Assembly: GCA_043778225.1 (NCBI GenBank)
Contig: JAYWGM010000044.1
Span: 29,044 to 93,043 of the forward strand
Direction: 5' to 3'
Origin: Deinococcales bacterium
GTDB taxonomy: Bacteria; Deinococcota; Deinococci; Deinococcales; JAAFIG01
Length of the DNA: 64,000 nt
Below are positions 1 through 64,000 of the stretch, piece by piece; position 1 is the first letter of the stretch; every line of letters starts with the position of its first letter. The notes beneath the pieces were generated by a model that had not been told where the DNA came from, did no database searches, and was given only the letters and a program-made list of their open reading frames with translations. The position numbers were made by a program, and so were the translations under genes.

Positions 1-1110
1 GGGCTTGTCCAGAACTTGAATCATTTGCAAGCACATCAACATAGTAAAAGTTAGATGCTCCCTCCCAATTTGTGCCAGTACGAACACTATAAGTGTTGAC
101 ATACAAAGGGACTAAGATATTGTTGACCCCAATTTCGTGGCTATCAAGAGTCTCGATTAAAAAGTAAATATCTGGTCCGGTATAATCCCACCAAGCTCCC
201 CAATCACAACTAGGTTTGCGAAATGAAAAACTGCCACTTGCGTCGGTATAACCAGCCGTTATTGGTGTCGAACCCATCCATCCATTATCGTCCCAAACAG
301 AAACTTTGGTAAAAGGCAAAGGCAAGGTTTTGCCGTTGTAAGAAACAGTCGCCACCATTGTTGCCCAATCACCTAAGCCACACCAACCTTGTGGTCTTGC
401 ATTGGCTTTGGCTCGAGCCGCAGTGCTTGGTGGTTGCAGTTCTTCTGGTCTGGGTTTTCCACTGCCCGTATCCGGCAAATAGCTAATGGCAGTGTTAAAA
501 GGTTCGGTTTTAGTGCCATCTGGTTTTGTAAATTGCAAATTCTCGAGTCTCGAGTCCAAACGCACACCATCTAAATCTTTAACATCATCTATGGTTTGGG
601 CAGCACTGAGGGCTGCATATTCTTCTGGGGTGCTTATTTTTGGTAAGTTCTCGAGGTGCTTTTCTAGGGTCTCGAGTCCAGATTCGGCTTGTGGATATGC
701 ACCTGCACTGGCAGCAGCAGTGTTATTGCTTGCCACATTAAAACCAAGCATATCGGCGGCTGGTTCTTGCCACTGGCTGCCTGTGGCATTAGCGGTGATG
801 TTGTAGTAGCCACTGCGTTTTGGTGTACCGCGCAACTCGAGGCTTTTGGTTTGTCCTGCTCCAATGGTGACTTGAATTGGTTCTTGACTGATACCAAGGT
901 TTTTTGGGGCGGCAATCGCCACATTAACATTGCTGTCTTTTGGGCTGTAAATCTCGAGCGTAACGCTAAATTCTTGACCTTTACGAAAAGCAGTTTGAGC
1001 AGTGGTGATTTGTAAGGTTGGTTCTGTAGAAATTTCGAGCGGTGCTTGGTTACAACTCGAGAGAAAAAGCATACACGCGCCGACTAGACTAGGAATGACG
1101 GAACTCCCAT
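1..1110 (-). pseudogene. Large lipoprotein (>360 aa, runs off the window start) with an apparently frameshifted signal peptide
   Basis: Hand translation gives an unbroken minus-strand frame from about 1108 to the window edge (...LVGACMLFLSSCNQAPLEIS...VSVWDDNGWMGSTPITAGYTDASGSFSF...PDIYF...) with lipobox LSSC. The GGAGG-preceded ATG at 1110 is out of frame and stops after 8 codons. Not in the supplied ORF track. Confidence 0.6.
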
Positions 1111-1260
1111 AGTATCCTCCAGCAAAACCCGAACTGTTCGCTGCGAATTAAAATTTTCGCATATCAAGACTGTAGCACAATCAATGCAAAATCAGGTCAA
1201 AACAGCCTTTTTATTCTGCTGGTCAGGGAAATCATGGCTTATAAGGCGGCTAGGGGTGAC

Positions 1261-2073
1261 TCAAACTCGCTTGCCCAACATCCGTGGATACGCCACAGCC
1301 ACAGTCAAAACAATCACCAAATACCGCAAATATGCACCCAAGCCCGAGCGCTTAATTTCGTCGGGCAACAAAATACTCGAGACAAAATAGAGTACAAATG
1401 CCAGCAGCACCCCAGCAAGCACAAATAAACCTTGTTGCCATCCGACTCGAGGTACGCTAAAGTCGCGGCTACCCAAAAAACCCACCATCACTGCTATGCC
1501 TCTCGAGTAGCTTTCGGGCAAAAAAATACACGCCACTCCAGCCACAATAACTAAAGTCAGGCTGATTTGCCAAGTGAGTTCTGGAATATAAAAACGACTG
1601 GCAATCCAAGCCAGTAATCCACCAATCGCTAACCCAAGCAGCACATCCTCGAGAAAATGCACCCCAAGCGATAAGCGCGAAAAGCCAATCAAAAGAATCA
1701 AAATCGGGGTCAGAATTCGCAGCCATACATACGGCTGTGTGATGCCCAAATAGCCCCAAACAAAAGCTGCATTTTGGCTGTGACCACTGGGTAAACCGGG
1801 GCTACCGATGGTTTCTTGAGCCGCCGCACTGGTCAGGCTTGGCTCGAGGTCGTAAGGGCGTGGCAGCCCAAAGGTAAGTTTCAGTAGGGTGTTGACCGCC
1901 GCACTGAGTCCAAAATAAATACCAATTTGTCGCCCAATTTTTGGAAAGCGTAAAAATAAAGCACTGAGAATCACAATATAGGCAATTTCTGAGCCAAGCT
2001 CGGTAATCGGTAGCCAAAGCCAGTCGAGTCTACCTTCAAAGCGTAAATACCTAATCAACTCGAGGTTTTCCAT
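1261..2073 (-). CDS. PAP2-family membrane phosphatase
   Basis: PAP2 motifs KLTFGLPRP, PSGH and SRLSLGVHF; multiple TM segments. Start moved to ATG 2073, 7 nt after -10 TAGATT. Confidence 0.9.
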   Translation of the reverse strand: MENLELIRYLRFEGRLDWLWLPITELGSEIAYIVILSALFLRFPKIGRQIGIYFGLSAAVNTLLKLTFGLPRPYDLEPSLTSAAAQETIGSPGLPSGHSQNAAFVWGYLGITQPYVWLRILTPILILLIGFSRLSLGVHFLEDVLLGLAIGGLLAWIASRFYIPELTWQISLTLVIVAGVACIFLPESYSRGIAVMVGFLGSRDFSVPRVGWQQGLFVLAGVLLAFVLYFVSSILLPDEIKRSGLGAYLRYLVIVLTVAVAYPRMLGKRV

Positions 2074-2124
2074 GGTTGCCAATCTACCTAAATTTCTTGT
2101 TGTGATGCGGTAATGTATTTCTAC

Positions 2125-2158
2125 TTGACAAATTGTTGTATATATGCAACAATTTGTC
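2125..2158 (+). promoter_or_regulatory. Sigma-70-type promoter overlapped by a 32-bp palindromic operator
   Basis: TTGACA (2125-2130), 17 bp, AACAAT (2148-2153), 7 nt, ATG 2161. Inverted repeat GACAAATTGTTG-N8-CAACAATTTGTC at 2127-2158. Confidence 0.8.
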
Positions 2159-16042: not shown

Positions 16043-16116
16043 ACACTAGAAAAACACAAACACCATACACACATCGCCCCCTTTCACTCGAGAGGTGAAC
16101 CCCTTTTTTGGGTTCT

Positions 16117-16245
16117 GGCTTGGCAGGCATTCGGGCTTGCTTAGTTCGTTTGAGCGAACCAAAGGCTTACCGTTGCGGAACAGCGTCGGAATTGCACCGA
16201 CTTCCCCATTTTTATCTCGAGATTACACACCTCGAGAACCAAGCA
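16117..16245 (-). ncRNA. Cobalamin riboswitch
   Basis: Minus strand GGTT...AAATGGGGAAGTCGGTGCAATTCCGACGCTGTTCCGCAACGGTAA...AAGCCCGAATGCCTGCC (B12 box), upstream of btuF; -10 TAGACT at 16251-16256. Confidence 0.95.
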
Positions 16246-16266
16246 CCAGCAGTCTACACCAAAAAT

Positions 16267-45399: not shown

Positions 45400-45545
45400 A
45401 ATTCCTGATTCAAGAATGACATATCATTACGATGACAGGGTGAGGCAAGCCCCACCCCTACGGCTGTATAAGAGCTTCTAACCGTAGGGGCTGGGCTTGC
45501 CTAGCCCACTGGGAAAAAGTTTTATTCAAAATCAAATCAGGAATT
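45400..45545. mobile_element. Candidate MITE/REPIN-like element: REP doublet inside 11-bp terminal inverted repeats
   Basis: AATTCCTGATT (45400-45410) and AATCAGGAATT (45535-45545) flank two oppositely oriented GTAG REPs (45438-45461 and 45484-45507). Confidence 0.55.
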
Positions 45546-45592
45546 AGCTAAAGTCCACAAGTACATTCTCGAAGTCAAGCTAGACCAAATCT

Positions 45593-45880: not shown

Positions 45881-45889
45881 GATGAACCT

Positions 45890-46633: not shown

Positions 46634-46753
46634 ACCTCAGTTTATAGTTTTTTGGTATTGCATGACACAGGTAAAATAGCTTAACGAGAATCTAGAAATT
46701 AGCCGCAAACTGATTGGTAATAAGGCTGACTTCCTGTACGTCTCCCATCCCGC

Positions 46754-46895
46754 TTCTCGAGCCTCACGCCTAAGCCTTTTGCTGTGGCTGTTTGCATTTG
46801 CTTCTCGAGCCACGCACTTGACCCAATCATCAAATCTGCGTAACCTGAACCCATGACTTTGCATTTACCCCCGCATCTCGAGCAACGCCTCGAGT
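46754..46895 (+). repeat. Direct repeat copy A, containing the promoter and start of the antitoxin gene
   Basis: Closely matches 48231-48350; partial copy at 47481-47502; contains TTGACC (46818), 17 bp, TAACCT, 6 nt, ATG. Confidence 0.9.
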
Positions 46896-47071
46896 ATTTA
46901 TCGCAGCAACTCGGCAAATCCGAGCAGGTTGTCCTTGAAGAAATGCTTGAAACCGCCTTGCCTAAAGTCGTGCCTAAGTACAAGCGGGCTTCTATAGGCA
47001 TGGGCAATTCGGGTCTTGGGAATTTATCGGAACGGGTGGATGAATTGCTGTTCACTCGAGATGAACCATGA
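46853..47071 (+). CDS. CopG/RHH-type antitoxin (VapB-like)
   Basis: TLHLPPHLEQRLEYLSQQLGKS and SIGMGNSGLGNLSERVDELL; ATGA-coupled to a PIN toxin. Confidence 0.85.
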   Translation: MTLHLPPHLEQRLEYLSQQLGKSEQVVLEEMLETALPKVVPKYKRASIGMGNSGLGNLSERVDELLFTRDEP

Positions 47072-47478
47072 TTTTGTGCGACACCAGTGCTTTAATTGCT
47101 TTTTTAGACCAGAGCGACAAGTACCATTTGGCAGTCAAAGCCTTTGACCAAGAACGCCTGATTGTTCCGACAACTGTTCTTTGCGAAGTGGATTACATGG
47201 TGGTCAAGTACCTTGGCGAAGCTGTCGCTAAGCAATTTTTTCTTGAATTGATGGAAGAATGGGAAGTGCTGGTTTTTGATACCACCGATTTAACTCGAGT
47301 GAATCAGATTCGTGGTTTTTACAAGTCTTTGCCGCTTGGTTTTGTGGATGCCAGCCTGATTGCACTTGCCGAACGCTACAAAATTCGGCAAATTTTAACT
47401 TTGGATCGTCGCCATTTTTTAGCTGTGCAACCTATTGGCTTAGAATTTCTGGAATTACTGCCGCATGATTTGACTTAA
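47068..47478 (+). CDS. vapC: VapC PIN-domain toxin
   Basis: DTSAL, VLCEVDY, LGFVDAS, TLDRRHF. Confidence 0.92.
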   Translation: MILCDTSALIAFLDQSDKYHLAVKAFDQERLIVPTTVLCEVDYMVVKYLGEAVAKQFFLELMEEWEVLVFDTTDLTRVNQIRGFYKSLPLGFVDASLIALAERYKIRQILTLDRRHFLAVQPIGLEFLELLPHDLT

Positions 47479-47527
47479 ACAGCCTCATGCCTAAGCCTTT
47501 GCTTGTAATTCGCATCTCGATTTTTCC

Positions 47528-47947
47528 TCATTCCAGCACTCGCACAATGCCTTTGGCTGCTTCGATTAGCTTTTCATCAAATGCTAAAAAATGCACAAAT
47601 CGTTGTTCTCGAGAAACCCATGCGGCTGTGGCTAATTGAATTGCATCCGCTCCTCGTAAGCCTCGAGAACGCACCAGCATCGCGGCTTCTTTGGTGATGT
47701 GTTCGGTTACGTCCACGCAGTTAAACGTGTCCCAATCCTCGAGTAGTTGCTTGAAAATCTTGGGTTCATCAGTTGTCGAAAGCTCGTTTTTTAGCGTTCG
47801 GTAATAAAAAGCACTGACGGCTTCGGCAAGTGTTATTTGTGAAACAATGATGTCATTGGCGGCAGCTACTGCTTTTTCTACGGTACTCGAGTGTATTTCT
47901 TGCACGTACAGTTTGACCAATGCGCTTGTGTCGAGGAACAAAATCAC
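47528..47947 (-). CDS. vapC: VapC PIN-domain toxin, second family
   Basis: FLDTSALVKLY, LRGADAIQLA, FDEKL. Confidence 0.92.
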   Translation of the reverse strand: MILFLDTSALVKLYVQEIHSSTVEKAVAAANDIIVSQITLAEAVSAFYYRTLKNELSTTDEPKIFKQLLEDWDTFNCVDVTEHITKEAAMLVRSRGLRGADAIQLATAAWVSREQRFVHFLAFDEKLIEAAKGIVRVLE

Positions 47948-48186
47948 AGGCTGCTTTCTCGAGCTTCGCGCAATTCGCTAACAGTGTCGGATAGGCTTTT
48001 GGCATGGTTTGGCAGTTGAATTCTTGGTGTTAAACCCTTGGCTTTTTGTCCGTTACCAAAGCGAATTGTGGGTGCTGGTGTTGCGCTAACTTTCTCCTCG
48101 AGTTGGTCAAACCATAGTTTTAGTTTACGCCGTTCTCGAGCGCTGAGGCTTTCTATTTCGCGTTCTATTACCTCGAGATTGCTCAT
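47944..48186 (-). CDS. Putative antitoxin
   Basis: Small charged protein, GTGA-coupled to the PIN toxin; C-terminal KSLSDTVSELR; leaderless start after TACAAT. Confidence 0.75.
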   Translation of the reverse strand: MSNLEVIEREIESLSARERRKLKLWFDQLEEKVSATPAPTIRFGNGQKAKGLTPRIQLPNHAKSLSDTVSELREARESSL

Positions 48187-48230
48187 GGGCGAATTGTAGC
48201 AAATTTCTGCTTACACCGCAAAAAAACCAT

Positions 48231-48350
48231 TTCTCGAGCCTCACGCTAAGCCTTTTGCTGGGGCTGTGTGCATTTGCTTCTCGAGTCACGCACTTGACCC
48301 AAACATCAAATCTTTGTATTTACCACCACATCTCGAGCAACGCATCGAGT
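48231..48350 (+). repeat. Direct repeat copy C, with the -10 box and ATG deleted (antitoxin remnant)
   Basis: Matches 46754-46895 except for a 21-bp deletion and substitutions; still encodes LYLPPHLEQRIE. Confidence 0.88.
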
Positions 48351-48441
48351 TGCCCACGCTCCGCTTGTTGCACGGGGTCTGCGGGCTGGGTGTCGCGGGT
48401 AATACTCGAATGTTATGGTCTAAAAATGTGAGCGTTGTGGG

Positions 48442-49419
48442 TCAAATGAGGTACATCGTGCCAGTCTTGGTTTCAAAAGCCCGAATGTTCTGCAAAGTTG
48501 TGGCGGCAATTTGCTCGAGCGCTTCGTGCGTAAAAAAAGCCTGATGCCCAGTAATTAAAACGTTTGGCAAGGTTAAAAGTCGCATAAAAACATCATCTTG
48601 AATAACTTGGTTGGATAAATTCTCGAAAAACAAATCGGCTTCTTCTTCGTAGACATCTAAAGCCAACGCACCCAACTGACCAGTCTTTAGGGCTTCGAGC
48701 GCGGCGGGGGTATCTATCAGTGCGCCTCTCGAGGTGTTGACCAACATTGCACCGCGTTTCATCTGGGCGAGGCGGGCGGCACTAACCAAATGATGGGTTT
48801 GGGGGGTCAGGGGGCAATGCAAAGAAATCACATCCGACTCGGCGAAAACTTGCTCAAGTGGCAGGTACTCGAGAAAGTCAAGGCTTGGGTTTGGGAATAA
48901 ATCAAATGCCAGAATCCGACAACCAAAAGCGTGCAGCAACTTGGCAAAAATTGCCCCGATTTGACCTGTGCCAATCACGCCAATGGTTTTTCCGTGGACA
49001 TCAAAACCGAGTAAACCATCCAAAGAAAAATTGCCATCGCGGACACGGTTATAGGCTCGGTGAATTTGGCGGTTTAGGGTCAGCAATAGCGCCAGCGCGT
49101 GTTCTGCCACAGCATGGGGCGAATACGCGGGGACTCGAGCCACCACTAAACCAAGGTGCTTGGCGGCTTTTAAGTCCACTTGATTAAAGCCAGCACAGCG
49201 CAGCGCAATCAGTTTTATGCCAAGTTGCGCCAGAAGCTCGAGCGTTGGCTTGCTCAAATCATCGTTGACAAAAGCGCAGACCACTTGGCAACCTTCGGCA
49301 AGTTTGGCAGTGCGAATATCTAAGCGTGGCTCGAGAAATAAAAGCTCGTACTGCCCAGCGTTCGCCGCCGCTAAAAAGGTCTGGTCGTAGGGCTTGGTGT
49401 TAAAAATCGCAATTCGCAT
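48442..49419 (-). CDS. ldhA: D-lactate dehydrogenase (D-2-hydroxyacid dehydrogenase)
   Basis: [38 protein letters not shown]. Confidence 0.9.
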
Positions 49420-49434
49420 AGGGCGCAGTCTACG

Positions 49435-50067
49435 CTAACCAAGGCTACTCAGGACTTCTTCAAAAACCTCGCTTGGTTGCGCCCCAGAAAGTGCCAAGCG
49501 CTGATTAAAAATAAAAAATGGCACACCAGAAATGCCAAGCCGTTGCGCCTCGAGTTGGCTGTCTTGGACTTCCTGCCGAAAACGCGCTCCATAGAGCATT
49601 GCCCGTACAAAACTCGGGTCTAAACCGACCTGCACGGCAATTTGCTCGAGTACCAAATTATCGGTGATGTCTTGAGCTTGGCTAAAATAAGCCTTGTACA
49701 ACGCCAACGCCATTGGTTTACCAAGCCCGAACTCCGAGGCGAACAGCACCAGCCGGTGTGCCGAGGCGGTGTTTGGCGCAACGGGCATGGTCTCAAAATC
49801 AAAACTAATCCCCTCGTTTTGACCCGCTTGGATTACCGTCGCAAAAGCTGCCCGTCGCGCCTCGAGACCACCAAATTTTTGTGTGCTAAAGATTTCCCAC
49901 GCCATACCGCGTTCAGGCATGGTGGGTTGCAATTGAAACGGATGCCACACCCATTCTAGCTCGAGGTCTGGACGGGCTTTGAAAACACGCGTCAGCCGTG
50001 TATCGCCAATAAAACAAAATGGGCAAGCAATATCAGAAAAAACATCGACCCGAATAAGTTTGCTCAT
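49435..50067 (-). CDS. DsbA-family oxidoreductase (FrnE-like)
   Basis: SDIACPFCFIG, GISGVPFF, SGAQP. Confidence 0.92.
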   Translation of the reverse strand: MSKLIRVDVFSDIACPFCFIGDTRLTRVFKARPDLELEWVWHPFQLQPTMPERGMAWEIFSTQKFGGLEARRAAFATVIQAGQNEGISFDFETMPVAPNTASAHRLVLFASEFGLGKPMALALYKAYFSQAQDITDNLVLEQIAVQVGLDPSFVRAMLYGARFRQEVQDSQLEAQRLGISGVPFFIFNQRLALSGAQPSEVFEEVLSSLG

Positions 50068-50696
50068 GCGCTAATCACTGGTGCAGCTTTACGATGTGTG
50101 CCAGTCTCGAGGGTTTTGAGCATAAAAGCCGCCACTTCTGAGCGCCCAATTCGCATTCCGTCGTTGATGCCGACCATACCAACTTTTAGCTGACCACTGG
50201 ATGGCGCATTGGTCAGCATTGGGACGCGCACAATTGTCCAGTCGAGGCTCGAGGCACGAACTAACCGAACGTGTTCGGCAGCATCTAACTGGACTTCTTT
50301 CGCCAAAAACCTAAGCATAAAACTAATCAAATTGTTGATTGCTTTGGGTTGGTCGCCCGGCTGGGCAACACCCGCACCCGTCAGGGTAATCAGGCGTTGG
50401 ACTCCCGTTTTTTGCATCGCAGCAATGATGTTTTTGGCAGCAACCGTCATAATATCTTTTGCGCCGCCCGGCACTGCGCCCAGTGTTGAGAGTACCGCGT
50501 CCTGTCCAGCCACAGCTTTTTCGATACCAGAAAGATCGTTGATGTTGCCCTGAATCACCCGTAAATTTGGATGCTTGATTGCTAATTTATTTGGGTCACG
50601 TAAGTATGCCGTAACTTGATGCCCAGCCTCAAGGGCTTGGTGAACCAAGGGTAAACCAGTCCGCCCCGAAGAACCAAAAATAGTTATTTTCATCAT
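50064..50696 (-). CDS. NAD(P)H-binding oxidoreductase (flavin/biliverdin reductase B-like)
   Basis: GSSGRTG, LDWTIVR. Confidence 0.88.
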   Translation of the reverse strand: MMKITIFGSSGRTGLPLVHQALEAGHQVTAYLRDPNKLAIKHPNLRVIQGNINDLSGIEKAVAGQDAVLSTLGAVPGGAKDIMTVAAKNIIAAMQKTGVQRLITLTGAGVAQPGDQPKAINNLISFMLRFLAKEVQLDAAEHVRLVRASSLDWTIVRVPMLTNAPSSGQLKVGMVGINDGMRIGRSEVAAFMLKTLETGTHRKAAPVISA

Positions 50697-50761
50697 CTGC
50701 TAGATTAAACACGTTTTTATTCATTCTGTGAAGTAGTTACGAAAAAGTGATAAAGTTACCC

Positions 50762-51124
50762 ATGCTAAACAAAAATGTAACTCACACATCCGACCTCGAG
50801 TACCAAGAGCGCATCAGCCGTCAACCCGAATGCACGGTCGAGCGCACCCTCGAGGTGATTGGCGGCAAATGGACGACCCTGATTTTACGAGATTTACTGA
50901 GCGGCACAAAACGATTTGGTCAATTGCGTGCCAGCCTTGGCAATATCCCGCCCAAAACCCTGACCGAACGCCTGCGCGACCTTGAGGCACACGGCGCACT
51001 CGAGCGAGTGCAATTTCCCGAGATTCCACCGCGAGTCGAGTACACCCTGACCAAGAAGGGGCTTGCCCTCGGCGCAATTATTAGCGCAATGGCACAGTGG
51101 GGTACAGATTGGACTTCAACCTAG
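50762..51124 (+). CDS. HxlR-family regulator
   Basis: CTVERTLEVIGGKW, PPRVEYTLT; divergent from the oxidoreductase genes. Confidence 0.93.
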   Translation: MLNKNVTHTSDLEYQERISRQPECTVERTLEVIGGKWTTLILRDLLSGTKRFGQLRASLGNIPPKTLTERLRDLEAHGALERVQFPEIPPRVEYTLTKKGLALGAIISAMAQWGTDWTST

Positions 51125-51744
51125 CCAATTCGCAACTCGGGACTCGGAACACGCCCTAAATCCTCGAGTATCCCCAAAGCCACGACCTCGGGCATGATTG
51201 CATTGCGCGGCACAGGTAAGCCAAGCCTATCCCAAAAAGGAGTCTTGACCGCCGGCGGCAGCACCACCGTAACAGGGCGCTGTAAGGCAATATCGGCATC
51301 TTTGGCATAGGCGCTTAAAGCTGCTTTGGCACTGGCATAGGCTTCGAACCCTTTGGCTTTGACCAATTCTGGACGCGCTCCAATGGCATAGACTCGAGCC
51401 GTCGGGCTTAACAAATGCCCAAGGTACTGGCAGACATACTCAAAGCCCAACAGATTTGCACCCCAGATTTTCTCGAGGACATCTGGGGCTAAATCTGTGC
51501 CAACCGCCACATCTCCGATGGCATAAATCAAGGTTTGGATACCACCTTTGCCCCCGATTTCCTGCGCCACTGCCATGACCTCGAGTTGATGTGTGACATC
51601 GGCGGGGACGGCATAGACCCCGAGTTCTCGCGCCAGAGCAAAAAGTTTTTGGCTGTCTCGAGCCACCAAAATTTGTGGTTGTGGCATGACCCGCGCCAAT
51701 GCTTGCCCGATGCCGCCTGTTGCCCCAAGAATAACGGTGTTCAT
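51121..51744 (-). CDS. Short-chain dehydrogenase/reductase
   Basis: GATGGIG, YASAK. Confidence 0.85.
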   Translation of the reverse strand: MNTVILGATGGIGQALARVMPQPQILVARDSQKLFALARELGVYAVPADVTHQLEVMAVAQEIGGKGGIQTLIYAIGDVAVGTDLAPDVLEKIWGANLLGFEYVCQYLGHLLSPTARVYAIGARPELVKAKGFEAYASAKAALSAYAKDADIALQRPVTVVLPPAVKTPFWDRLGLPVPRNAIMPEVVALGILEDLGRVPSPELRIG

Positions 51745-51795
51745 TGGTCTATTGTCGCGGATATAAGCCTAAAATTTTGTCGTCTACCGCCAGAT

Positions 51796-52599
51796 TTACG
51801 CTCCAACTGCGCCATATTGTTTGCGTCCGGCTCGCCACATGATTTGAAACAGCCCAAAAGTAATCGCTAACCAGACCAGTTGCACCAGCAAAACCCGCCC
51901 AACTTCTGCCCACTCGAGCTTACCCGTTAAAATCTGGGCTGGATAATAAACAATGTACGGAAATGGCAAATACTCGAGAATTGGGCGCAGCCAAGCAGGG
52001 TAAAACTCAAGCGGCGCAAAACTGCCAGAAAGCATAATGGACAGCACAAAATAGAGTTCATCCAATGCCGTGGCATTCTCGAGCCAAAAACAGCACAACC
52101 CAATGCAGTAGGCAATTAAAAAACGAATCGCAAAAGCCAGACTGATGGCAAGCAAAAAAACCAGCAGATGCCCAAGGCTCGAGACCAGTTTTGTACCAGG
52201 AATCAGCAGCACACCAATAATTGCCACCACAATTAAAAACGGTCCACGCACAAAGCGCTCGGTAAAATGCTGCATAAAGTATTCCCAAAACGGATTGATG
52301 GGGCGAAGTAACTTATTCGAGAACGTACCCTGACGAATCGCAAAATCCATTTCCCAAGCCACCCAAGCCACCACCAACTGCCCTGAAAGCCAGGCTGCCA
52401 AAAAGTAGGCTGCAAAGTCTTGGCTCGAGAAACCATTCAGGCTGCCGCCCTCGGCTTGGGCTTTACCAATCCAGACCGCCATCATGATTAAAGGAATTGT
52501 GCCGGATAACATCCAAATCAGAATTTCGGCACGATAAATCGTCATGTGCGATAACCAAGCTGCAAATAAGGCTCTGAATTTACGCCAGACTTGGTTCAT
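51796..52599 (-). CDS. ABC-2 type permease (DUF990-like)
   Basis: About six TMs, IRQG.FS.KLLRP, LSGSFAPL, C-terminal YGAVGA. Confidence 0.88.
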   Translation of the reverse strand: MNQVWRKFRALFAAWLSHMTIYRAEILIWMLSGTIPLIMMAVWIGKAQAEGGSLNGFSSQDFAAYFLAAWLSGQLVVAWVAWEMDFAIRQGTFSNKLLRPINPFWEYFMQHFTERFVRGPFLIVVAIIGVLLIPGTKLVSSLGHLLVFLLAISLAFAIRFLIAYCIGLCCFWLENATALDELYFVLSIMLSGSFAPLEFYPAWLRPILEYLPFPYIVYYPAQILTGKLEWAEVGRVLLVQLVWLAITFGLFQIMWRAGRKQYGAVGA

Positions 52600-52652
52600 G
52601 GTCTGTCCCTATTGACGAGGTTCATGGTCTGTCCCTATTGACGAGGTTCATG
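52593..52652. repeat. 26-bp tandem repeat, about 2.3 copies, at the ATPase/permease junction
   Basis: GGTTCATGGTCTGTCCCTATTGACGA twice, then GGTTCATG. Confidence 0.95.
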
Positions 52653-53622
52653 ATTTTACTCCACTAAACAACTGCCCAATAATTTCTTCAATCGGTGGGT
52701 CTTCGATCGTGATGTCGGCAATCGGTAACTCCGCGAGTAACTGGGCAGCCCGACTCGAGACCTCGCTTCGCGCCACGCTCAGTTCGGCATTCAGACCTTC
52801 TAAACTCAAAACCGTGCCATAGCGCTCGAGGTCATGGCGTTGGGTCGCTTGCTCGAGTTGTAGCTTAATAATTTTGGCAGGGCGGGCGGTCTCGAGGAGC
52901 GCCGATAAATCGCCATCAAAAATAATTTTGCCTTTGTCCACCACAATAATTCGTTTGCAGAGCGCCGTTACATCCGCCATATAGTGGCTGGTCAGAATCA
53001 CCGTGGCGTTAAAGCGTTGGTTGTACTCGGCAATAAATTCGCGGATTTTGACCTGCATATTGACATCCAAGCCAATCGTTGGTTCGTCCAAAAATAAGAC
53101 TTTGGGCTTGTGCAAAAGCGCCGCCGCCAATTCGCATTTCATCCGTTCACCAAGCGATAATTTTCTGACCTGTTTTTTGAGTACGTCCTCGAGACCAAGT
53201 AAATCGGTAAATTCCTGCATTGTGGCTTTGTAGTCGGTGTCGGTAATTTCATAAATCGCTTGATTAACCAAAAAGCTATCCAGTGCAGGTAAATCCCACA
53301 TCAGTTGCTGTTTTTGTCCCATGATTAAGGTCATGCTTTTCAAAAAATTGGTTTTGCGTTCAAATGGCACAAAGCCAGCCACTCGAGCCAAACCGCCAGA
53401 CGGGTATAACAAGCCCGAAAGCATTTTTAGGGTGGTGGTTTTGCCCGCCCCGTTTGCCCCTAAAAAGCCAACCATCTCGCCCGTCTGAATTGTAAAATTT
53501 ACGCCATCCACGGCTTTGACCAGTTTATTTTGGCGCTTAAAAAAACTCTTTAAGCTGCCAGCCAAGCCGGGTTCTTTTTCGGCAACCGTATAGTGTTTCT
53601 GTAGATTCTCGACTTCAATCAT
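52648..53622 (-). CDS. ABC transporter ATP-binding protein
   Basis: GANGAGKT, LSLGERMKCE, FLDEPT. Confidence 0.95.
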   Translation of the reverse strand: MIEVENLQKHYTVAEKEPGLAGSLKSFFKRQNKLVKAVDGVNFTIQTGEMVGFLGANGAGKTTTLKMLSGLLYPSGGLARVAGFVPFERKTNFLKSMTLIMGQKQQLMWDLPALDSFLVNQAIYEITDTDYKATMQEFTDLLGLEDVLKKQVRKLSLGERMKCELAAALLHKPKVLFLDEPTIGLDVNMQVKIREFIAEYNQRFNATVILTSHYMADVTALCKRIIVVDKGKIIFDGDLSALLETARPAKIIKLQLEQATQRHDLERYGTVLSLEGLNAELSVARSEVSSRAAQLLAELPIADITIEDPPIEEIIGQLFSGVKS

Positions 53623-53644
53623 GCGCCAATTAGCTTACCGCATC

Positions 53645-53673
53645 TTGACACGGGCTTGGCAGTTTGATACCGT
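53645..53673 (+). promoter_or_regulatory. tRNA operon promoter
   Basis: TTGACA, 17 bp, TACCGT. Confidence 0.7.
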
Positions 53674-53703
53674 TGCAACTCGGGCGCAAGCTCGACTGGT
53701 TTC

Positions 53704-53780
53704 GCCGCTCTAGCTCAATCCGGTAGAGCACCCGATTTGTAATCGGAAGGTTGTCGGTTCAATTCCGATGGGCGGCTCCA
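53704..53780 (+). tRNA. tRNA-Thr(TGT)
   Basis: Cloverleaf, anticodon loop TTTGTAA, GGTTCAATTCC T-arm, encoded CCA. Confidence 0.97.
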
Positions 53781-53819
53781 AAACTCGAGGGCTTTAACCT
53801 CCTTGAGTCTGTGGTGCGC

Positions 53820-53907
<88 letters not shown>

Positions 53908-53909
53908 GT

Positions 53910-53938
53910 CCGGAGGCGTAATTGCCTCCGGGTTTTTT
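53910..53938 (+). terminator. Intrinsic terminator after the tRNAs
   Basis: CCGGAGGC-GTAATT-GCCTCCGG followed by GTTTTTT. Confidence 0.9.
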
Positions 53939-54028
53939 ATGGATCGAGTTTTGGAGCCGCCCATAAAAGAGTATACAGCGCTAAAAGCGTGACTCGAGGA
54001 CATACGCAAAACTGGTACACTGCCCACC

Positions 54029-55843
54029 ATGTCGGACTTAAAAACACGCTTAAAACTTGCCCTTGAAGAAATTGTTCCCCCCGAAACCGAAGTGATTATT
54101 CAGGACACCCCCGAAGGTAAAGCGGGCGATTATGGTTCGCCTGTGGCATTTTTACTGGCAAAAGTTTTGAAGCAAAATCCAGCCCAAATCGCCAAGGATT
54201 TAGCCGCCAAAGTGCAATTGCCAGTTGGGGTGACTCGAGCCGAAGCGGTTGGTCCTTACCTTAATTTCTTTGTTGACTCGAGCGCCTTTATTCAAAATGT
54301 CATCTCGAGTGTTTATGCCCCCGAAAGCAAAAATCAAAAAGTGATTATCGAACACAGCAGCGTCAATCCAAATAAAGAATGGCACGTTGGACATATCCGT
54401 GGAGCGCTGATTGGCGATGCCTTGGGCAGAATTTACCGTGCGGCTGGCTATCAGGTCGAAATCCAAAATTATATCGACGATACAGGCAGACAAGCCGCCG
54501 AGAGTCAATTTGCAATTAAGCATTATGGTGCAGTTTGGGATGGCACACAAAAGTACGACCACTGGCTAGGCGAGTTGTATGTGCGCCTCCATAAAGACTT
54601 TGATTTTAAGAAAAAAACGCCAGAAGCGCTAAGCCTCGAGCCAGCCATTGGCGATGTGATTCATGCCCTCGAGCGCGGCGAACTGCGCCACGAAATCCAA
54701 ACAGTCGTTAAATCACAACTCGAGACCGCCTATAGCCTCGGCATTGAATACGACCTTTTAACGTGGGAATCGGATGTGGTTCACGCCGGACTGGTCGAAC
54801 GGGCGCTGGAAATTTTTGCTGACCGACTCGAGCAACCGACCCAAGGCAAATACGCTGGCGCAAAGGGCATCGATTTAAGTCCGTTTGTACCCAACCTCGA
54901 AGAACCGTTTAAGGTTTTGGTGCGCGGCAATGGCACATATGTCTACGAAACCAAAGACATTGCTTATCACTACTGGAAATTTGGGCTTTTTGAAGGACTC
55001 GAGTTTACCAATTTTGCCAAGCAACCAAGCGGCAAAATTTTGTACAGCACGGCTGGAACAGGTGAACTTCACCCAGACGGACAAAGTTTTGCTCATGCCA
55101 ACCAAGTGATAAACGTGATTGATGCAAGACAAGGTTTAGCCCAAATTGTGGTCAAGGCTGGCTTGTCCTTAATTAGCGATGGCACATTTGCCAAATACCA
55201 TCATCATCTTGCCAACGAAACCGTGCTACTCGAGGGACAAACCATGTCGGGTCGCAAAGGCATTACCGTTAGTGCCGATGAAGTGATTGCCGAAGCTAAG
55301 GCTCGGGCGCTCGAGACGATGAGTCCAAATCATCCAAACCCAGAGGTTGTTGCGCCACAAATTGGATTGGGTGCATTAAAATTTGCATTCTTAAAAGCCA
55401 CACCCGAACGGCAAATAGACTTTCGTTGGGATGCGGCATTGGCGCTGCAAGGGGATACCGCCGTGGTTGTGCAGTACGCTCATGCCCGTGCTAGAAAAAT
55501 CGCTCGAGAATACGTGGTTAAGGGCTTAACTGGTACACCCGACTTCTCGAGCCTAGGCGAACTCGAGCTTGGAGTTCTGAAAACTGTGGCGAAATACCCA
55601 GAAGTTCTAGCACTTTGCACCCGTGATAAATCTGCCCATCCAATGTGTGCGTATGCTCTCGAGTTAGCAGCAGCATTTAATGGCTATTACAATCACAAAG
55701 ATGCAAAGGGGAAACCAGACACCAGTGTTCTACAAGCCCCAGAAGGCTTACGCGAAGCGCGGTTAGCCGTGGTGACAAAAGTCGCTGACGCAATTCAAGA
55801 AGCGTTGGCGGTACTTGGCATAAATTCCCCAGATGAGATGTGA
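54029..55843 (+). CDS. argS: Arginine--tRNA ligase
   Basis: EHSSVNPNKEWHVGH (HIGH), MSGRKG, QYAHAR; leaderless start. Confidence 0.97.
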   Translation: MSDLKTRLKLALEEIVPPETEVIIQDTPEGKAGDYGSPVAFLLAKVLKQNPAQIAKDLAAKVQLPVGVTRAEAVGPYLNFFVDSSAFIQNVISSVYAPESKNQKVIIEHSSVNPNKEWHVGHIRGALIGDALGRIYRAAGYQVEIQNYIDDTGRQAAESQFAIKHYGAVWDGTQKYDHWLGELYVRLHKDFDFKKKTPEALSLEPAIGDVIHALERGELRHEIQTVVKSQLETAYSLGIEYDLLTWESDVVHAGLVERALEIFADRLEQPTQGKYAGAKGIDLSPFVPNLEEPFKVLVRGNGTYVYETKDIAYHYWKFGLFEGLEFTNFAKQPSGKILYSTAGTGELHPDGQSFAHANQVINVIDARQGLAQIVVKAGLSLISDGTFAKYHHHLANETVLLEGQTMSGRKGITVSADEVIAEAKARALETMSPNHPNPEVVAPQIGLGALKFAFLKATPERQIDFRWDAALALQGDTAVVVQYAHARARKIAREYVVKGLTGTPDFSSLGELELGVLKTVAKYPEVLALCTRDKSAHPMCAYALELAAAFNGYYNHKDAKGKPDTSVLQAPEGLREARLAVVTKVADAIQEALAVLGINSPDEM

Positions 55844-55854
55844 TATGAAATTAT

Positions 55855-58851
55855 TTATCGTCCTTTTTTTACGTCGCGTTCATTCTTGCGCCTGTCCTGC
55901 CGACTGAGTTTTTGCACCTTGGTTTGGCTCGAGCGAATAAATGGATTTGAACCACTCGAGAAGCCACTGGTTGGTTCAGTCGCTTCTGCGCCAGCACTAT
56001 CAGCTTGCAAGTTTTGTGGAGCGGGTTCAAAGTTCACTTGGACTCGGAAAATAAATTTGGTGACTTCGGCTTTAATCGCATCGGTCATTTCCGCAAATAA
56101 CTTGGTGGCTTCAAATTTGTATTCCACAAATGGGTCTTTTTGTCCGTACTGACGGTTAAAGATGCCACTTCGCAGCACATCCATGCTGTGCAAATGCTCT
56201 TTCCAGAATTGGTCTACGATTTGCAGCACCACATAGCGCTCGAGTCCACGCAGAATTTGTGGGGTCAGTTCTTTTTCTCGAGCCTCATAGGCTTCGGCAG
56301 CGACATCGAGCAATTTGTCGGTCAAGGCATCGCGGCGTTCGGTTCGCAAACTTTCAAAGTCAAAAGTTTCAAAGGCTGGAACGCTGTCCACCAAAGTTGC
56401 CCGCATTGCCTCGAGGTCCCAATCATCGGAATCCTTGGTAAAGTGCAGCGCCGCTTGGGTGTTGATAAAGTCAACAATCATGCCTTCGGTCAGTTCGTTG
56501 ACTCCTTCGTCTTTGCCAAGCAGCACTTCGCGGCGTTGGGCATAGACCACTTCGCGCTGCTTGCTCATGACATCATCGAAAGCCAGCAGTTGCTTACGAA
56601 TCGAAAAGTTGCGGTCTTCGACTCGTTTTTGGGCAGTCTCGATTGAGCGTGTGACCATCCCCGCTTCAATCGGTTGGGTGTCGTCCATACCGAGTTTATC
56701 GAGCATATTGACGACCGTTTCGTTGGCAAAAAGGCGCATCAGGTCATCTTCAAAGGATAAATAGAATTTACTCGAGCCGGGGTCGCCTTGCCTTCCAGCC
56801 CGCCCGCGCAACTGATTGTCTATGCGCCGTGCTTCGTGGCGTTCTGTGCCGATAATATGCAGTCCACCAGCTTGCTTAACCTTGACCGAATCGGCTAGGA
56901 AGTCGTCTCGAGTTTTGATGATGTGCTGGATGTCGTCTTCGCCAACGGTTGGTTTATCCGAAACGTGTTTTATTGCGCCTTGGATGTCGTTGCGTAAACA
57001 GGCTGCCACAAACAATTCAATGCCGTCGTCATAACGACTAAAGCCTTTTTTCTCGAGGTGGGCATAAGCCGCAAATTCGGCGTTGCCACCGAGTTGAATA
57101 TCTGTGCCACGCCCAGCCATGTTGGTCGAAATCGTGATTGTGCCACCGCGTCCCGCCTGAGCGATAATATCGGCTTCTCGAGCGTGTTGTTTGGCGTTCA
57201 GGACGTTATGCTTTACGCCTTTTCGTAAAAATGCCAGCACCGCTACTTCTTTCTCGAGTTGATCAAAATAAACCAGAGCATTTTTTGGTAGTTTTGCCCG
57301 CACCCCCTCGAGTTTATCGGAAGTTAGTGCGCCGGGGTTAGAAAGGAGTTTCTGCATTTCTTCAATGAGCGCAGCACTACCTTTTGCCAGTTGCGCCTGC
57401 AATGCTCCAGCACTTTTCTCGAGAAACTGCACATAGCGGTTTGGCTCGGAAAGTAGTTTGCTTAAAAATTCGGATTTTTCGATACTGACCGTACCAACCA
57501 AGACTGGCTGCCCGATTTTATGGCGCTCAATTAGTTCTTCAACCACTGCCTTAAATTTGCCCAACTCGGTGCGGTAAACCAAATCCTGAGCGTCTTTTCG
57601 GACCATCGGCAAATTGGTTGGTATCACCAAAACATCGGCGTTGTAGAGTTCGATAAACTCTTTTTCTTCGGTTTTGGCTGTACCGGTCATACCGCCAATT
57701 TTGTTGTAGAGCTTAAAAAAATTCTGGTAAGTGATGGTCGCCAGCGTTTGGTTTTCGCCAGCAATTTTGACGTTTTCTTTGGCTTCTATTGCCTGGTGTA
57801 AACCTTCGCCGTAACGACGACCGGGCATCAAGCGCCCCGTGAATTCGTCCACAATCACGACTTCGCCTTCTTCAACGATGTAATCCACATCTTTTTTATA
57901 ATGCTCGGTGGCGCGGATGGCTTGCATCAGCATATGACCAAGTTCCATGTTCTCGGTGGTGAATAAGCCGTCTATGCTCAGTAGTTTTTCGGCTTTATTG
58001 ATACCAGCCTCGGTCAAGTGAACATTGCGCCCTTTTTCGTCTACGGTAAAATCGCCAGTTGGTTCGGTGCGGTTTTTATCGCCCGGCACAACCGCTTCGC
58101 CTTTCTCGAGCATCCCCGCAATTTTGGTCATCAGGTAATAATTGGTGGTGCTTTTTTCTGAAGCCCCAGAAATAATTAAGGGCGTGCGGGCTTCATCAAT
58201 TAAAATACTGTCCACTTCGTCGATGATGCAAAAGTTGAGTGGCGTTTCGGCACGCAACACCAAATTTTCTGGGGCTGGCGACATATTATCGCGCAAGTAA
58301 TCAAAGCCCAACTCGGAGTTGGTGACGTAAGTGATGTCGCAGCCGTAAGCATCTTTGCGCTCGGACGGGTGCATGGCGCTTTGAATCAAACCAACGCTCA
58401 AACCCAAAGTCTTAAAAACCAGACCCATTTGCTCTGCGCCGACTTTGACTAAGTAATCGTTCGCCGTGACCAAATGTGCGCCTTTGCCCGAAATAGCATT
58501 TAAGGTTAAAGCCAAGGTTGCCGCCAAGGTTTTGCCTTCGCCTGTTTTCATTTCAGCAATTCGCCCAGCGTGCAATGCTGCGCCGCCAACCAACTGGACA
58601 TCGTAATGGCGTTTGCCAAGGGTGCGCTTGCTGGCTTCTCGAGTCAGAGCAAAGGCTTCGACCATCAGTTTATCGAGGCTTTCGCCGTCCTTAAAACGCA
58701 ATTTGAGTTTACCAAATTCTTCTGCCAAATGCTCGGTAGCAAGCTTTTCCATTTCTGGCTCAAGCAAATTTACTTTTGAAACCACATCTTTTTGCAGTTT
58801 TGCCACATCTTTGGCGTTATTATCGAATAATTTATTAATAATTCCTAACAT
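55855..58851 (-). CDS. secA: Preprotein translocase SecA
   Basis: MKTGEGKT, DEVDSILIDEARTPLIISG, TNMAGRGTDI, QLRGRAGRQGDPG. Confidence 0.99.
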   Translation of the reverse strand: MLGIINKLFDNNAKDVAKLQKDVVSKVNLLEPEMEKLATEHLAEEFGKLKLRFKDGESLDKLMVEAFALTREASKRTLGKRHYDVQLVGGAALHAGRIAEMKTGEGKTLAATLALTLNAISGKGAHLVTANDYLVKVGAEQMGLVFKTLGLSVGLIQSAMHPSERKDAYGCDITYVTNSELGFDYLRDNMSPAPENLVLRAETPLNFCIIDEVDSILIDEARTPLIISGASEKSTTNYYLMTKIAGMLEKGEAVVPGDKNRTEPTGDFTVDEKGRNVHLTEAGINKAEKLLSIDGLFTTENMELGHMLMQAIRATEHYKKDVDYIVEEGEVVIVDEFTGRLMPGRRYGEGLHQAIEAKENVKIAGENQTLATITYQNFFKLYNKIGGMTGTAKTEEKEFIELYNADVLVIPTNLPMVRKDAQDLVYRTELGKFKAVVEELIERHKIGQPVLVGTVSIEKSEFLSKLLSEPNRYVQFLEKSAGALQAQLAKGSAALIEEMQKLLSNPGALTSDKLEGVRAKLPKNALVYFDQLEKEVAVLAFLRKGVKHNVLNAKQHAREADIIAQAGRGGTITISTNMAGRGTDIQLGGNAEFAAYAHLEKKGFSRYDDGIELFVAACLRNDIQGAIKHVSDKPTVGEDDIQHIIKTRDDFLADSVKVKQAGGLHIIGTERHEARRIDNQLRGRAGRQGDPGSSKFYLSFEDDLMRLFANETVVNMLDKLGMDDTQPIEAGMVTRSIETAQKRVEDRNFSIRKQLLAFDDVMSKQREVVYAQRREVLLGKDEGVNELTEGMIVDFINTQAALHFTKDSDDWDLEAMRATLVDSVPAFETFDFESLRTERRDALTDKLLDVAAEAYEAREKELTPQILRGLERYVVLQIVDQFWKEHLHSMDVLRSGIFNRQYGQKDPFVEYKFEATKLFAEMTDAIKAEVTKFIFRVQVNFEPAPQNLQADSAGAEATEPTSGFSSGSNPFIRSSQTKVQKLSRQDRRKNERDVKKGR

Positions 58852-61803: not shown

Positions 61804-62682
61804 AGCTGGCACAAGCCACGGAATCACAAACCAAGCTGCCATCATGGCTGTACCAACATACGGTAGGGCATAAATGACCGGTGCATGGGCTTGCTGAAAA
61901 TTGCCATTGCGAATTCCACGCAACACCCCGGGCAGAATAATCACCAAAAGCATCACAAAACCAAAACCAAAGACCCACCATGGGGCAATTTGCTGCACCA
62001 ACAACGCATATGCCCCCGCCAGAACCGAAAGCGTCAGCAGGGCTTGCATTAAAACCTGCGCTCGAGGCTTACCGAGTAAACCCGCCGTGTTTTTTAAGCC
62101 AGCTTCTTGGTCGCCCTCAAAGTCGCGCACTTGATTAAAGACTTGCCCATAAGCGCTGGCAGCCGTCATCGAAAGAAGCGGTGCAATATAGGCGGTGTTC
62201 AGGCTATCGGCAAAAGCAAAATAACCACATAATAACTGTAAACTCGAGAGCATGATCATGTGGCTGACGACATCAAGCACCGCAATACCCTTAAAACGCC
62301 AGGGGCGATAGGAGTACAAAAACCCCAGCACAATACAAATCCCACCCAGCACCGTAACGGTCAAGCCCAAAGGCAAAAATAACAAAAAGGCAATGCCAGC
62401 CACCACAAACGAAGCCAAATTGGCTTGCTGGCTCGAGATTAAACCTGCCGTGACCGGATTTCGCCCAACTTTTTTCGGGTCTCGAGCATCGTCTGGGGCA
62501 TCTTCGACATCGTTGTACATAAAGGCAAAACCAACCGCTAACCAATTGGCAAGCAGCACCAAAAGCATCTTCCAGTTGAGGTTTCCACCCGCCGCCGCCA
62601 CACCAAGGCAAGTGGTAAACACCACAGAACCCGCGTAATCGTTAAAACGCAATAAGCGCCAAATGCCAATCAATTGTTTCAC
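61792..62682 (-). CDS. UbiA-family prenyltransferase
   Basis: NDVEDAPDD and NQVRDFEGD Asp-rich motifs; YSYRPWRFK. Confidence 0.88.
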   Translation of the reverse strand: MKQLIGIWRLLRFNDYAGSVVFTTCLGVAAAGGNLNWKMLLVLLANWLAVGFAFMYNDVEDAPDDARDPKKVGRNPVTAGLISSQQANLASFVVAGIAFLLFLPLGLTVTVLGGICIVLGFLYSYRPWRFKGIAVLDVVSHMIMLSSLQLLCGYFAFADSLNTAYIAPLLSMTAASAYGQVFNQVRDFEGDQEAGLKNTAGLLGKPRAQVLMQALLTLSVLAGAYALLVQQIAPWWVFGFGFVMLLVIILPGVLRGIRNGNFQQAHAPVIYALPYVGTAMMAAWFVIPWLVPALRA

Positions 62683-62778
62683 GTCAAAAATCCCCTTGAT
62701 GTCTTGTCCCGTACAGACAAGGATACCGCGTTAGGACACGTTTCGACTAGGGGGTGAATTTTTTTGTAGACTAGGCTC

Positions 62779-63840
62779 ATGACTTTTGATGAGATGCTGA
62801 CCCAATGTGTAAAAAGCGGCGCTTCGGATATTCATTTGCATTCTGGTATGCCACCGCACGTGCGAACCAACGGACATATGAAACCCCTGATGCCTACACC
62901 CTTGACGGCACAACTGATGGAAAGCCTCGTCACCACAATGCTCAGCGAAAAGCAACGCGCCAAGTTTAGCGAAAAAAACCAAGTCGATTTTGCTCATAGT
63001 ATTGCAGGTGTGGCTCGTTTTCGGGTCAATATGTTTCGCCAGCGCGGCAGTGTCAGCTTGGTTTTGCGGGTCATCAGCAACGACAACAGTCACCTTGCAA
63101 ACGTTAAATTACCATTTAATACGATTAGCGACCTCGCCCAACAAAAGCGCGGCATTATTTTAGTGACCGGTCCGACTGGTTCGGGTAAAAGCACCACTTT
63201 GGCAGCCATTTTAGACCAGATTAACCGTACTCGAGCCGAAATGATTGTGACCATCGAAGACCCCATCGAAATGCTGCACAGCAACCACCAGAGCGTCGTG
63301 GTACAACGCGAAGTTGGACAGGACGCGCCAAGTTTTGCCGAAGCCTTGGTGGCAGCCATGCGCCAAGACCCAGATGTGATCATGATTGGCGAAATCCGCG
63401 ACTTTGCGACTGCCCAAGCTGCCATCAGCGCGGCTCAAACCGGACATTTGGTGCTGAGTACCCTGCACACCATGGACACGATTCGCACCGTCAATCGGAT
63501 TCTCGAGCTTTTCCCACAAGAAGAACGTGGCATTGCGCGGGTTTTATTTGCCGATTCGATTATTGCTGTGGTCTCGCAGCGTTTACTGCCCAAAGCCGAT
63601 GGTCAAGGGCGGGTGGCGGCGGTCGAGATTATGCGCGGCACACTGTACATCAAAGACATTATTAAAGACGAAGGCGCACTCAGTAAACTCAAAGAAGCCC
63701 TTTATGATGGGCGCGAAAACGGCATGATTCCATTTGATGAACACCTGACCGAACTGCACCGCGACGGCTTGATTGACTTTAACACGGGCTACTCGGCAGC
63801 CACCAGTCCACATGAATTTAAGATGAAAGCAGGGGCTTAG
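62779..63840 (+). CDS. pilT: Type IV pilus retraction ATPase (PilT/PilU family)
   Basis: ASDIHL, GPTGSGKST, TIEDPIE, MRQDPD, TGHLVLSTLHT. Confidence 0.88.
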   Translation: MTFDEMLTQCVKSGASDIHLHSGMPPHVRTNGHMKPLMPTPLTAQLMESLVTTMLSEKQRAKFSEKNQVDFAHSIAGVARFRVNMFRQRGSVSLVLRVISNDNSHLANVKLPFNTISDLAQQKRGIILVTGPTGSGKSTTLAAILDQINRTRAEMIVTIEDPIEMLHSNHQSVVVQREVGQDAPSFAEALVAAMRQDPDVIMIGEIRDFATAQAAISAAQTGHLVLSTLHTMDTIRTVNRILELFPQEERGIARVLFADSIIAVVSQRLLPKADGQGRVAAVEIMRGTLYIKDIIKDEGALSKLKEALYDGRENGMIPFDEHLTELHRDGLIDFNTGYSAATSPHEFKMKAGA

Positions 63841-64000
63841 GAACTTTCAAGAGTCTATATACGCGACTGACCAACACAATTTGGTATCAGGTGTTTTATT
63901 ACCCGTCTTTCCGCTACCCCTATATCGTACTGAGGAATTAAATTTATGCCAAGCTAAGGGATGAACCCAGAATACATCAGTCAATCCATAGAACACCTTG

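Follow-up and report, generated by a model that had tools for sequence, protein, structure and literature searches.

The window analyzed here is a stretch of 64,000 nucleotides from a Deinococcales bacterium (contig JAYWGM010000044.1 of assembly GCA_043778225.1), and its dominant feature is the hexamer CTCGAG, which occurs 365 times over positions 1-64,000. The 100 dinucleotide-preserving shuffles used to obtain the expectation gave 8.24 ± 2.69 copies, with a maximum of 14, and none of them reached 365. This corresponds to 5.7 sites per kb overall and to 6.4 per kb outside a motif-poor polysaccharide-synthesis island of 33.4% GC on the minus strand (28,393-35,848), which carries 2 CTCGAG in 7.46 kb. 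The resident sugar-nucleotide genes adjoining the island (36,426-40,978) contain 6.6-12.3 sites per kb. The other features of interest are a cobalamin riboswitch (16,105-16,258, minus strand), secA (55,855-58,851, minus strand), which we used for ortholog comparison, and a gene for a PilT-like T2SSE ATPase, that is a competence or pilus gene (62,779-63,840, plus strand), whose presence had been pointed out in the first-pass annotation of this DNA. That annotation had described the window as saturated with CTCGAG, in agreement with the shuffles. Its count for the first 1.1 kb (8 copies) was exact, and the interval 36,401-40,420 was indeed a dense stretch but contained 36 copies instead of the 37 claimed. 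The motif had also been placed in RNA elements, which is correct for the riboswitch (sites at 16,216 and 16,231) but not for the three tRNAs of the window, which have none (two of these genes lie at 53,704-53,902, plus strand).

The genome to which the window belongs (hereafter G000; 4,029,277 bases in 107 contigs, 48.7% GC, 89% complete) contains 24,877 CTCGAG, or 6.17 per kb, which is 26.7 times the zero-order expectation. A genome-wide count of this kind had been proposed in the first-pass annotation, together with the codon shuffles described below, and both support its view. CTCGAG is by a wide margin the commonest hexamer of G000, the next ranks being occupied by its own one-base extensions, and the sites are found nearly everywhere, with 0 or 1 copy in just 12 of 1,962 two-kb windows. 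No base exceeds a frequency of 0.31 at the flanking positions, and the unit is the bare hexamer without flanking context. The same-composition word GAGCTC is present in 24 copies. A maximal-order Markov model returned an observed/expected ratio of 1.16 for CTCGAG; we rejected this value as a refutation because the model conditions on the pentamers CTCGA and TCGAG, whose 7.3-fold enrichment is due solely to the hexamer. The spacing of the sites is near-geometric (mean 160.6 bases, coefficient of variation 1.0), with a deficit below 25 bases, and XhoI would cut unmethylated DNA of these genomes into fragments of about 160 bp. No two sites of G000 lie at a distance of 6 bases, which would generate the avoided GAGCTC. 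A distance of 7 bases is locally over-represented, with 123 pairs vs 30-53 at distances 8-11.

To place these numbers in the order, we counted the motif in 121 whole genomes, 19 of them from the family of the window, with GAGCTC as the same-composition control. All 19 family genomes are enriched, with 12,028-35,442 CTCGAG each (about 4.3-7 per kb) at GC contents of 43-60%, against 0-568 copies of GAGCTC. These genomes were assembled separately, and the restriction to one contig or the assembly artefact that had been named as possible refutations are thus excluded. Other families of the order have about 1 CTCGAG per kb, a level that is plausibly codon-driven in those with 65-69% GC, several lineages are intermediate (2-3 per kb), and one family (f3) avoids the word, with 40-942 copies in 2.8-4.8 Mb. 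The close clade is made of uncultured Deinococcales/Deinococcota metagenome-assembled genomes (MAGs), and the next relatives are MAGs labelled Trueperaceae, in keeping with the assignment to Deinococcota made in the first-pass annotation. Seventeen loci of the close clade had a mean of 5.28 CTCGAG per kb and 0 GAGCTC, and 52 more distant loci a mean of 1.79 (range 0.34-5.83), although many of these loci come from genomes counted above and are therefore not independent. Among the distant MAG loci, L189, L199, L225 and L196 (SecA 64-66% identical; Deinococcales, Truepera, Trueperaceae) had 2.8-5.8 CTCGAG per kb and 0-2 GAGCTC in 4-9 kb. The trait may not be confined to the family, or may have had more than one origin.

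The simplest explanation would be a by-product of codon or amino-acid usage, of base composition, or of an assembly or library artefact. Our gene set, obtained with a crude open reading frame (ORF) caller of our own, comprises 3,583 ORFs of at least 90 amino acids (89.7% coding) with 22,261 coding sites, distributed over the three frames as 13,090, 4,497 and 4,674. Frame 0, which encodes Leu-Glu, thus holds 59% of the coding sites, as a codon effect could produce, and such an effect plausibly accounts for the roughly 1 site per kb of the GC-rich relatives. Coding DNA, at 6.18 per kb, nevertheless matches intergenic DNA, which has 2,637 sites at 6.19 per kb, so that the first-pass annotation was right to report all three frames and intergenic DNA as occupied. 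Ten synonymous-codon shuffles within genes retained a mean of 2,384 coding sites (11%), and five codon-order shuffles retained 1,018. Together with the contrast between GAGCTC and CTCGAG, the absence of flanking context and the enrichment of all 19 family genomes, these shuffles refute the by-product explanation, to which we give a practically negligible probability.

The choice of codons itself depends on whether the hexamer can be formed. Leu is written CTC in 88% of cases when GAG follows, compared with 3-35% when the next codon is one of eight others. Arg is written CGA in 89% of cases in xCT_Gxx contexts vs 13-20% elsewhere, and Ser is written TCG in 82% of cases in xxC_AGx contexts vs 11-17% elsewhere, in line with the earlier claim that codon or amino-acid bias would be insufficient. 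Of the positions where CTCGAG can be reached synonymously, 69%, 56% and 42% carry it in frames 0, 1 and 2, vs about 2% expected, which corresponds to log-odds shifts of 4.6, 3.9 and 3.6. The shift is similar in all frames, as would be produced by a force acting on the DNA sequence and not on the protein.

This force has altered the proteins as well. In G000, 69% of Leu-Glu pairs are spelled CTCGAG, and the pair Leu-Glu is found at 2.33 times its expectation, compared with 0.97 for Glu-Leu, 0.71 for Val-Glu and 0.52 for Met-Glu. A rough estimate from the long ORFs of fetched loci gave observed/expected ratios for Leu-Glu of 2.2-2.7 in family relatives vs 1.0-1.3 in other families. In an alignment of 23 SecA-coding sequences, from which partial and redundant loci were excluded, motif columns were gained and lost among relatives and arose from Val-Glu, Ile-Glu, Leu-Lys or unrelated codons. 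Proteins are altered by the motif, and many amino-acid pairs are pushed into CTCGAG. The tRNA genes of G000 contain 6 CTCGAG in 68 genes (5,286 nt, 1.1 per kb), about five times below the genome average. Four tRNA genes (Ser, Cys, Glu, Met) located within 3 kb of each other (G000:C19:9937-12769) each carry one CTCGAG.

Gain and loss of the motif were followed by comparing G000, gene by gene, with stretches fetched from ten relatives, which gave 165 ortholog pairs with an identity of 55% or more and a coverage of 70% or more; a syntenic alignment of the window was dropped, as secA and a few genes alone could be aligned. The sharing of CTCGAG positions exceeded that of other hexamers by a factor of 2 to 3.7: 60% vs 26-27% for controls with G003, 55% vs 20-21% with G006, 46% vs 12-13% with G011, and 21% vs 10% with G013. 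Most of this excess reflects a high equilibrium occupancy. At conserved Leu-Glu pairs, a relative of the same genus had the motif in 76% of the cases where G000 has it and in 60% of those where G000 does not, the corresponding values being 50% vs 37% for genus g3 and 81% vs 67% for genus g5. The closeness of 76% and 60% indicates that occupancy has come close to equilibrium independently in each lineage instead of being inherited in a frozen state. When the motif was present in one genome only, the ortholog was one base off in 86 of 416 cases (21%) vs 44% for controls in genus g1, with a deficit in the same direction in g3 and g5; these one-base-off windows overlap, and P-values computed from them are therefore overstated. 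One-off states are short-lived. A DNA-level fixation bias for the exact hexamer thus operates throughout the family and is still acting in each lineage, and the active genome-wide process proposed in the first-pass annotation is the best reading of these ortholog data.

The enrichment of CTCGAG is accompanied by a general avoidance of other palindromes. In G000, 29 of the 64 palindromic hexamers have an observed/expected ratio below 0.05 vs 65 of 4,032 (1.6%) non-palindromic ones, and the median for palindromic hexamers is 0.08. GACGTC, AGGCCT and GGGCCC are each present in 1 copy, CTGCAG in 13, and even the tetramer GGCC in 131 copies in 4 Mb. When the 63 palindromes other than CTCGAG were pooled, the ratio was 0.32 for G000, compared with 0.33-0.60 for its family relatives and 0.57-1.19 for small samples from other families.

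The polysaccharide-synthesis island of the window, which encodes glycosyltransferases, EpsG, a flippase-like protein, an aminotransferase and a GNAT protein, lacks both signatures. The longest CTCGAG-free gap of the whole of G000 (5,637 bases, window positions 28,387-34,024) is located in it, and the 29 palindromes avoided by the genome occur 8 times in the island vs 6 times in the remaining 56.5 kb. This is as expected for recently imported DNA. The island is recently arrived DNA not yet converted to the motif, and imported DNA ameliorates over time. CTCGAG density and palindrome avoidance can thus be used together to flag imported DNA in these genomes. The island is bounded by a gene for a putative endonuclease of the Uma2 family (35,857-36,342), and an AAA-ATPase/PD-(D/E)XK gene is located inside the wider cluster (20,613-22,145).

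Highly iterated palindromes (HIPs) have to our knowledge been described so far only from cyanobacteria, where their role is a matter of debate. The cyanobacterial HIP1 is the octamer GCGATCGC, and alternate HIPs exist (PMC4390886, PMC5861425). Its density is reported as roughly 1 per kb and HIP genomes as carrying a cognate conserved orphan methyltransferase (PMC4390886), whereas a kilobase-scale periodic spacing is described in PMC5861425. It has been proposed as an uptake sequence (PMC13756078), and methylated HIP1 is reported to raise the transformation of Synechococcus more than 100-fold (10.1101/2024.09.10.611283). CTCGAG resembles HIP1 in being a short GC-containing palindrome that is tens of times over-represented throughout a lineage, in genes and spacers alike, is not explained by codon preference and is shared between relatives above control words; its function is likewise debatable, and that of HIP1 has been linked in this recent work to methylation and transformation. 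It differs in being a hexamer of another sequence, in Deinococcota and not Cyanobacteria, in its density of about 6 per kb vs roughly 1, in the visible remodelling of the proteome (Leu-Glu 2.3-fold), and in that we did not find a conserved cognate orphan methyltransferase in the five Pfam families searched over the 19 family genomes (see below). We conclude that CTCGAG belongs with HIP1 among the highly iterated palindromes, and the HIP1-like description given in the first-pass annotation holds. No published account of CTCGAG enrichment in Deinococcota was found in the literature searched. CTCGAG would thus be a second HIP case, in an unrelated phylum, with a different word, about six times denser and with a measurable effect on proteins. 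As a single order spans hyper-accumulation, intermediate enrichment and avoidance, it also offers a comparative system to look for the responsible genes and to separate models based on methylation, repair and transformation.

The first-pass annotation had named three candidate engines, a CTCGAG methyltransferase with biased repair, a mark for the uptake or recombination of self DNA, and a nucleoid-protein site. The first corresponds to the model proposed by Elhai for HIP1, biased repair linked to methylation: a CTCGAG methyltransferase would mark strands, and a repair of the mismatch or very-short-patch type would fix changes that create sites and revert those that destroy them. The short life of one-off states is in agreement with this model. 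So is the spectrum of one-off variants in G000, those keeping the inner TCGA having a mean observed/expected ratio of about 1.05 and those breaking it about 0.7, which resembles the outer-position bias reported for HIP1 (PMC4390886). The depletion of one-mismatch variants, which the first-pass annotation had suggested looking for, was thus weaker in the first class. CTTGAG (1.40) and CTCAAG (1.41), the deamination products of a methylated third-position cytosine, were not depleted, which speaks against the model. The three transition neighbours of CTCGAG are moreover about equally common, indicating that there is no 5-methylcytosine hot spot. Very-short-patch repair by Vsr, associated with Dcm, enriches CCWGG in Escherichia coli and illustrates how a repair bias can enrich the target of a methyltransferase and deplete its one-off precursor. 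The present case differs from it in that the effect is far larger, the precursor words are not depleted, and Vsr (PF03852) was not found in the 89% complete G000. Furthermore, we know of no methyl-directed mismatch repair in Deinococcota.

Methylation of the word does occur in the phylum. N6-methyladenine (m6A) Type II methyltransferases specific for CTCGAG, with no cognate nuclease listed, are reported as active in three cultured Deinococcota, Meiothermus ruber, M. chliarophilus and Marinithermus hydrothermalis (PMC4752239), a work whose main text, in its passages on CTCGAG, treats the word just for Nocardia replication origins. MamA of Mycobacterium smegmatis provides an example of an orphan CTCGAG methyltransferase (PMC7526240). 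G000 itself has more than 20 DNA methyltransferase genes in all, including 5 of the C5 class, 3-5 N6_N4, 3 D12 and about 8 gamma-class genes, several of them with nuclease neighbours, and this abundance is a point in favour of biased repair.

The first-pass annotation had suggested a search for an orphan CTCGAG methyltransferase co-distributed with the enrichment; in the five Pfam families searched we found no orthologue common to the 19 family genomes, a result that speaks against biased repair as well. The families themselves are widespread (PF01555 in 16/19 genomes, PF00145 in 17/19, PF02086 in 15/19, PF07669 in 17/19 and PF02384 in 17/19), and the methyltransferase sets vary widely between genomes. 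The closed family genome G013 lacks PF01555 and PF07669, its one C5 gene contains no CTCGAG and encodes a protein at most 36% identical to the C5 enzymes of G000, G006 and G011, and among its D12 and N6_Mtase proteins none exceeds 30% identity with any protein of G000, so that G013 and G000 share no enzyme with at least 40% identity in the C5, D12, N6_N4, Eco57I and N6_Mtase families. These comparisons make it unlikely that a single vertically inherited methyltransferase of the searched families is the engine. Non-orthologous enzymes with the same specificity, other methyltransferase families, or a gene in the missing 11% of G000 are possible. Overall, we consider biased repair improbable as the source of the enrichment.

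The search among individual candidates was likewise negative or uninformative. Four methyltransferases of G000 were followed, with orthologues in 2-4 other family genomes each. An orphan-looking C5 enzyme (C2:28343-29272) had orthologues in just 4 of them, a Type ISP-like methyltransferase of 1,072 amino acids had close orthologues in just 3 genomes, and an Eco57I+TaqI_C enzyme of 650 amino acids had orthologues in just 2, its wider homologues carrying generic names. The orthologue of the latter in G003 (L121, G003:C4:28861-30789) has an in-frame TAA, and G003 still contains 23,235 CTCGAG. The N6_Mtase proteins of about 500 amino acids formed five clusters, none with a close homologue in G000, and the sole Eco57I-type methyltransferase of G025, a motif-rich genome of family f4, was 21-23% identical to the enzymes of G000. 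PDB matches covered catalytic domains only. The motif density of the methyltransferase genes, tried as an age clock, did not discriminate between them, most having 3-7 sites per kb. A D12-class methyltransferase of 380 amino acids is encoded about 1.5 kb downstream of dprA (G000:C89:21497-24828), with a likely orthologue in G007 judging from size and score.

CTCGAG is also the recognition word of XhoI and PaeR7I, and XhoI-family systems are present in the same order. Restriction targets are normally avoided, whereas CTCGAG is here the commonest hexamer, and the XhoI nuclease (PF04555) was found neither in G000 nor in any of the 19 family genomes, as opposed to 6 of the 121 genomes of the order. 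These six correspond to 5 of the 23 genomes of f4 and to one copy in f2 (G031), which is broken by TGA and TAG stops. The partner of the nuclease is a convergent N6_N4 methyltransferase of 340 amino acids (L105, L106, L107), with orthologues in 13/23 genomes of f4, 11/16 of genus g9 of family f5, one f2 genome (G027, 63% identity) and 0/19 of the family. Within f4, genomes with this methyltransferase had about 1.5 CTCGAG per kb vs about 1.9 for those without it, using rounded genome sizes. In neighbouring families, the XhoI-partner methyltransferase therefore does not go with more CTCGAG, an observation that will count below against the DNA exchange model.

Another possibility is weak direct selection on each site, which could be the target of a nucleoid protein, a palindromic Chi-like stop for degradation, or a "self" mark whose density is read against a defence nuclease. 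Selection could achieve a per-site log-odds shift of about 3.6-4.6 if populations are very large, and this possibility would account for the 2 to 3.7-fold excess of sharing at orthologous positions and for the lack of the motif in imported DNA. On the other hand, the spacing is near-geometric, and the marginal value of one site in 25,000 should be tiny, yet amino-acid choice is overridden. In addition, neither RecC (PF04257) nor the PDDEXK_1 nuclease domain of the RecB/AddAB type (PF12705) was found in the 89% complete G000, and the classical Chi reader thus appears to be missing; we also know of no candidate binding protein. We therefore view weak selection as an unlikely engine.

The last model places the engine in DNA exchange. 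CTCGAG-bearing fragments from conspecifics, possibly m6A-methylated, would be better taken up, or would survive or recombine better, in natural transformation, so that motif-bearing alleles would replace motif-less ones by molecular drive, and recognition sites for the numerous restriction systems that circulate in the group would be purged simultaneously. The m6A methylation of CTCGAG in the three cultured Deinococcota named above would fit this model too. The known precedents are the DNA uptake sequences (DUS) of Neisseria and the uptake signal sequences (USS) of Pasteurellaceae, which are 9-12 nt long, non-palindromic, present at about 1 per kb, and owe their spread to a drive associated with natural transformation. 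CTCGAG resembles them as a genome-wide word of coding and non-coding DNA that is scarce in imported DNA, and competence genes are present in G000, where the transformation machinery includes ComEC, DprA and a PilT-like ATPase. It differs from them as a 6-nt palindrome without flanking context found at 6.2 per kb. We favour a drive by DNA exchange, with the motif as a "self" tag in transformation or recombination, because of these competence genes, of the avoidance of nearly all palindromes combined with variable restriction-modification sets, and of the recent work on HIP1. This preference is tentative and falls somewhat short of an even chance.

Several points indeed weigh against such a drive. 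Uptake, biased repair and weak selection leave like signatures in sequence data. The density of 6 per kb is several-fold higher than that of known uptake sequences, a hexamer gives little specificity, and the near-random spacing reveals no spacing requirement. DNA uptake in Thermus and Deinococcus is reported to be sequence-independent. Finally, if methylation of the incoming DNA were required, the corresponding family-wide methyltransferase would be expected, and none was found in the five families and 19 genomes searched, to which should be added the behaviour of the XhoI-partner methyltransferase in f4.

A more specific version of the exchange drive, which we consider doubtful, would be that CTCGAG and the near-total avoidance of most other hexamer palindromes together form a "barcode" governing gene flow in the family. 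CTCGAG, as the only palindrome tolerated, would then act as a signal of self in the uptake, survival or recombination of conspecific DNA, operating without a vertically conserved methyltransferase and spread by a molecular drive that rewrites proteins. If this were true, highly iterated palindromes would have originated a second time, independently and by a distinct mechanism, and the 30-year-old question of HIP1 could be approached through a tractable system.

Some additional observations concern the organism itself. A primer-pattern search of the G000 assembly did not retrieve a 16S rRNA gene. In contigs from two runs of one study (X1 and X2), from which the stretch may have come, the main contigs were identical to the window, and no spectrum of population single-nucleotide polymorphisms could be obtained. 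For window positions 36,001-56,000, these runs also contained short contigs 85-95% alike on conserved genes, which originate from co-occurring relatives, and in run X2 the depth of these short contigs was above that of the window's own organism.

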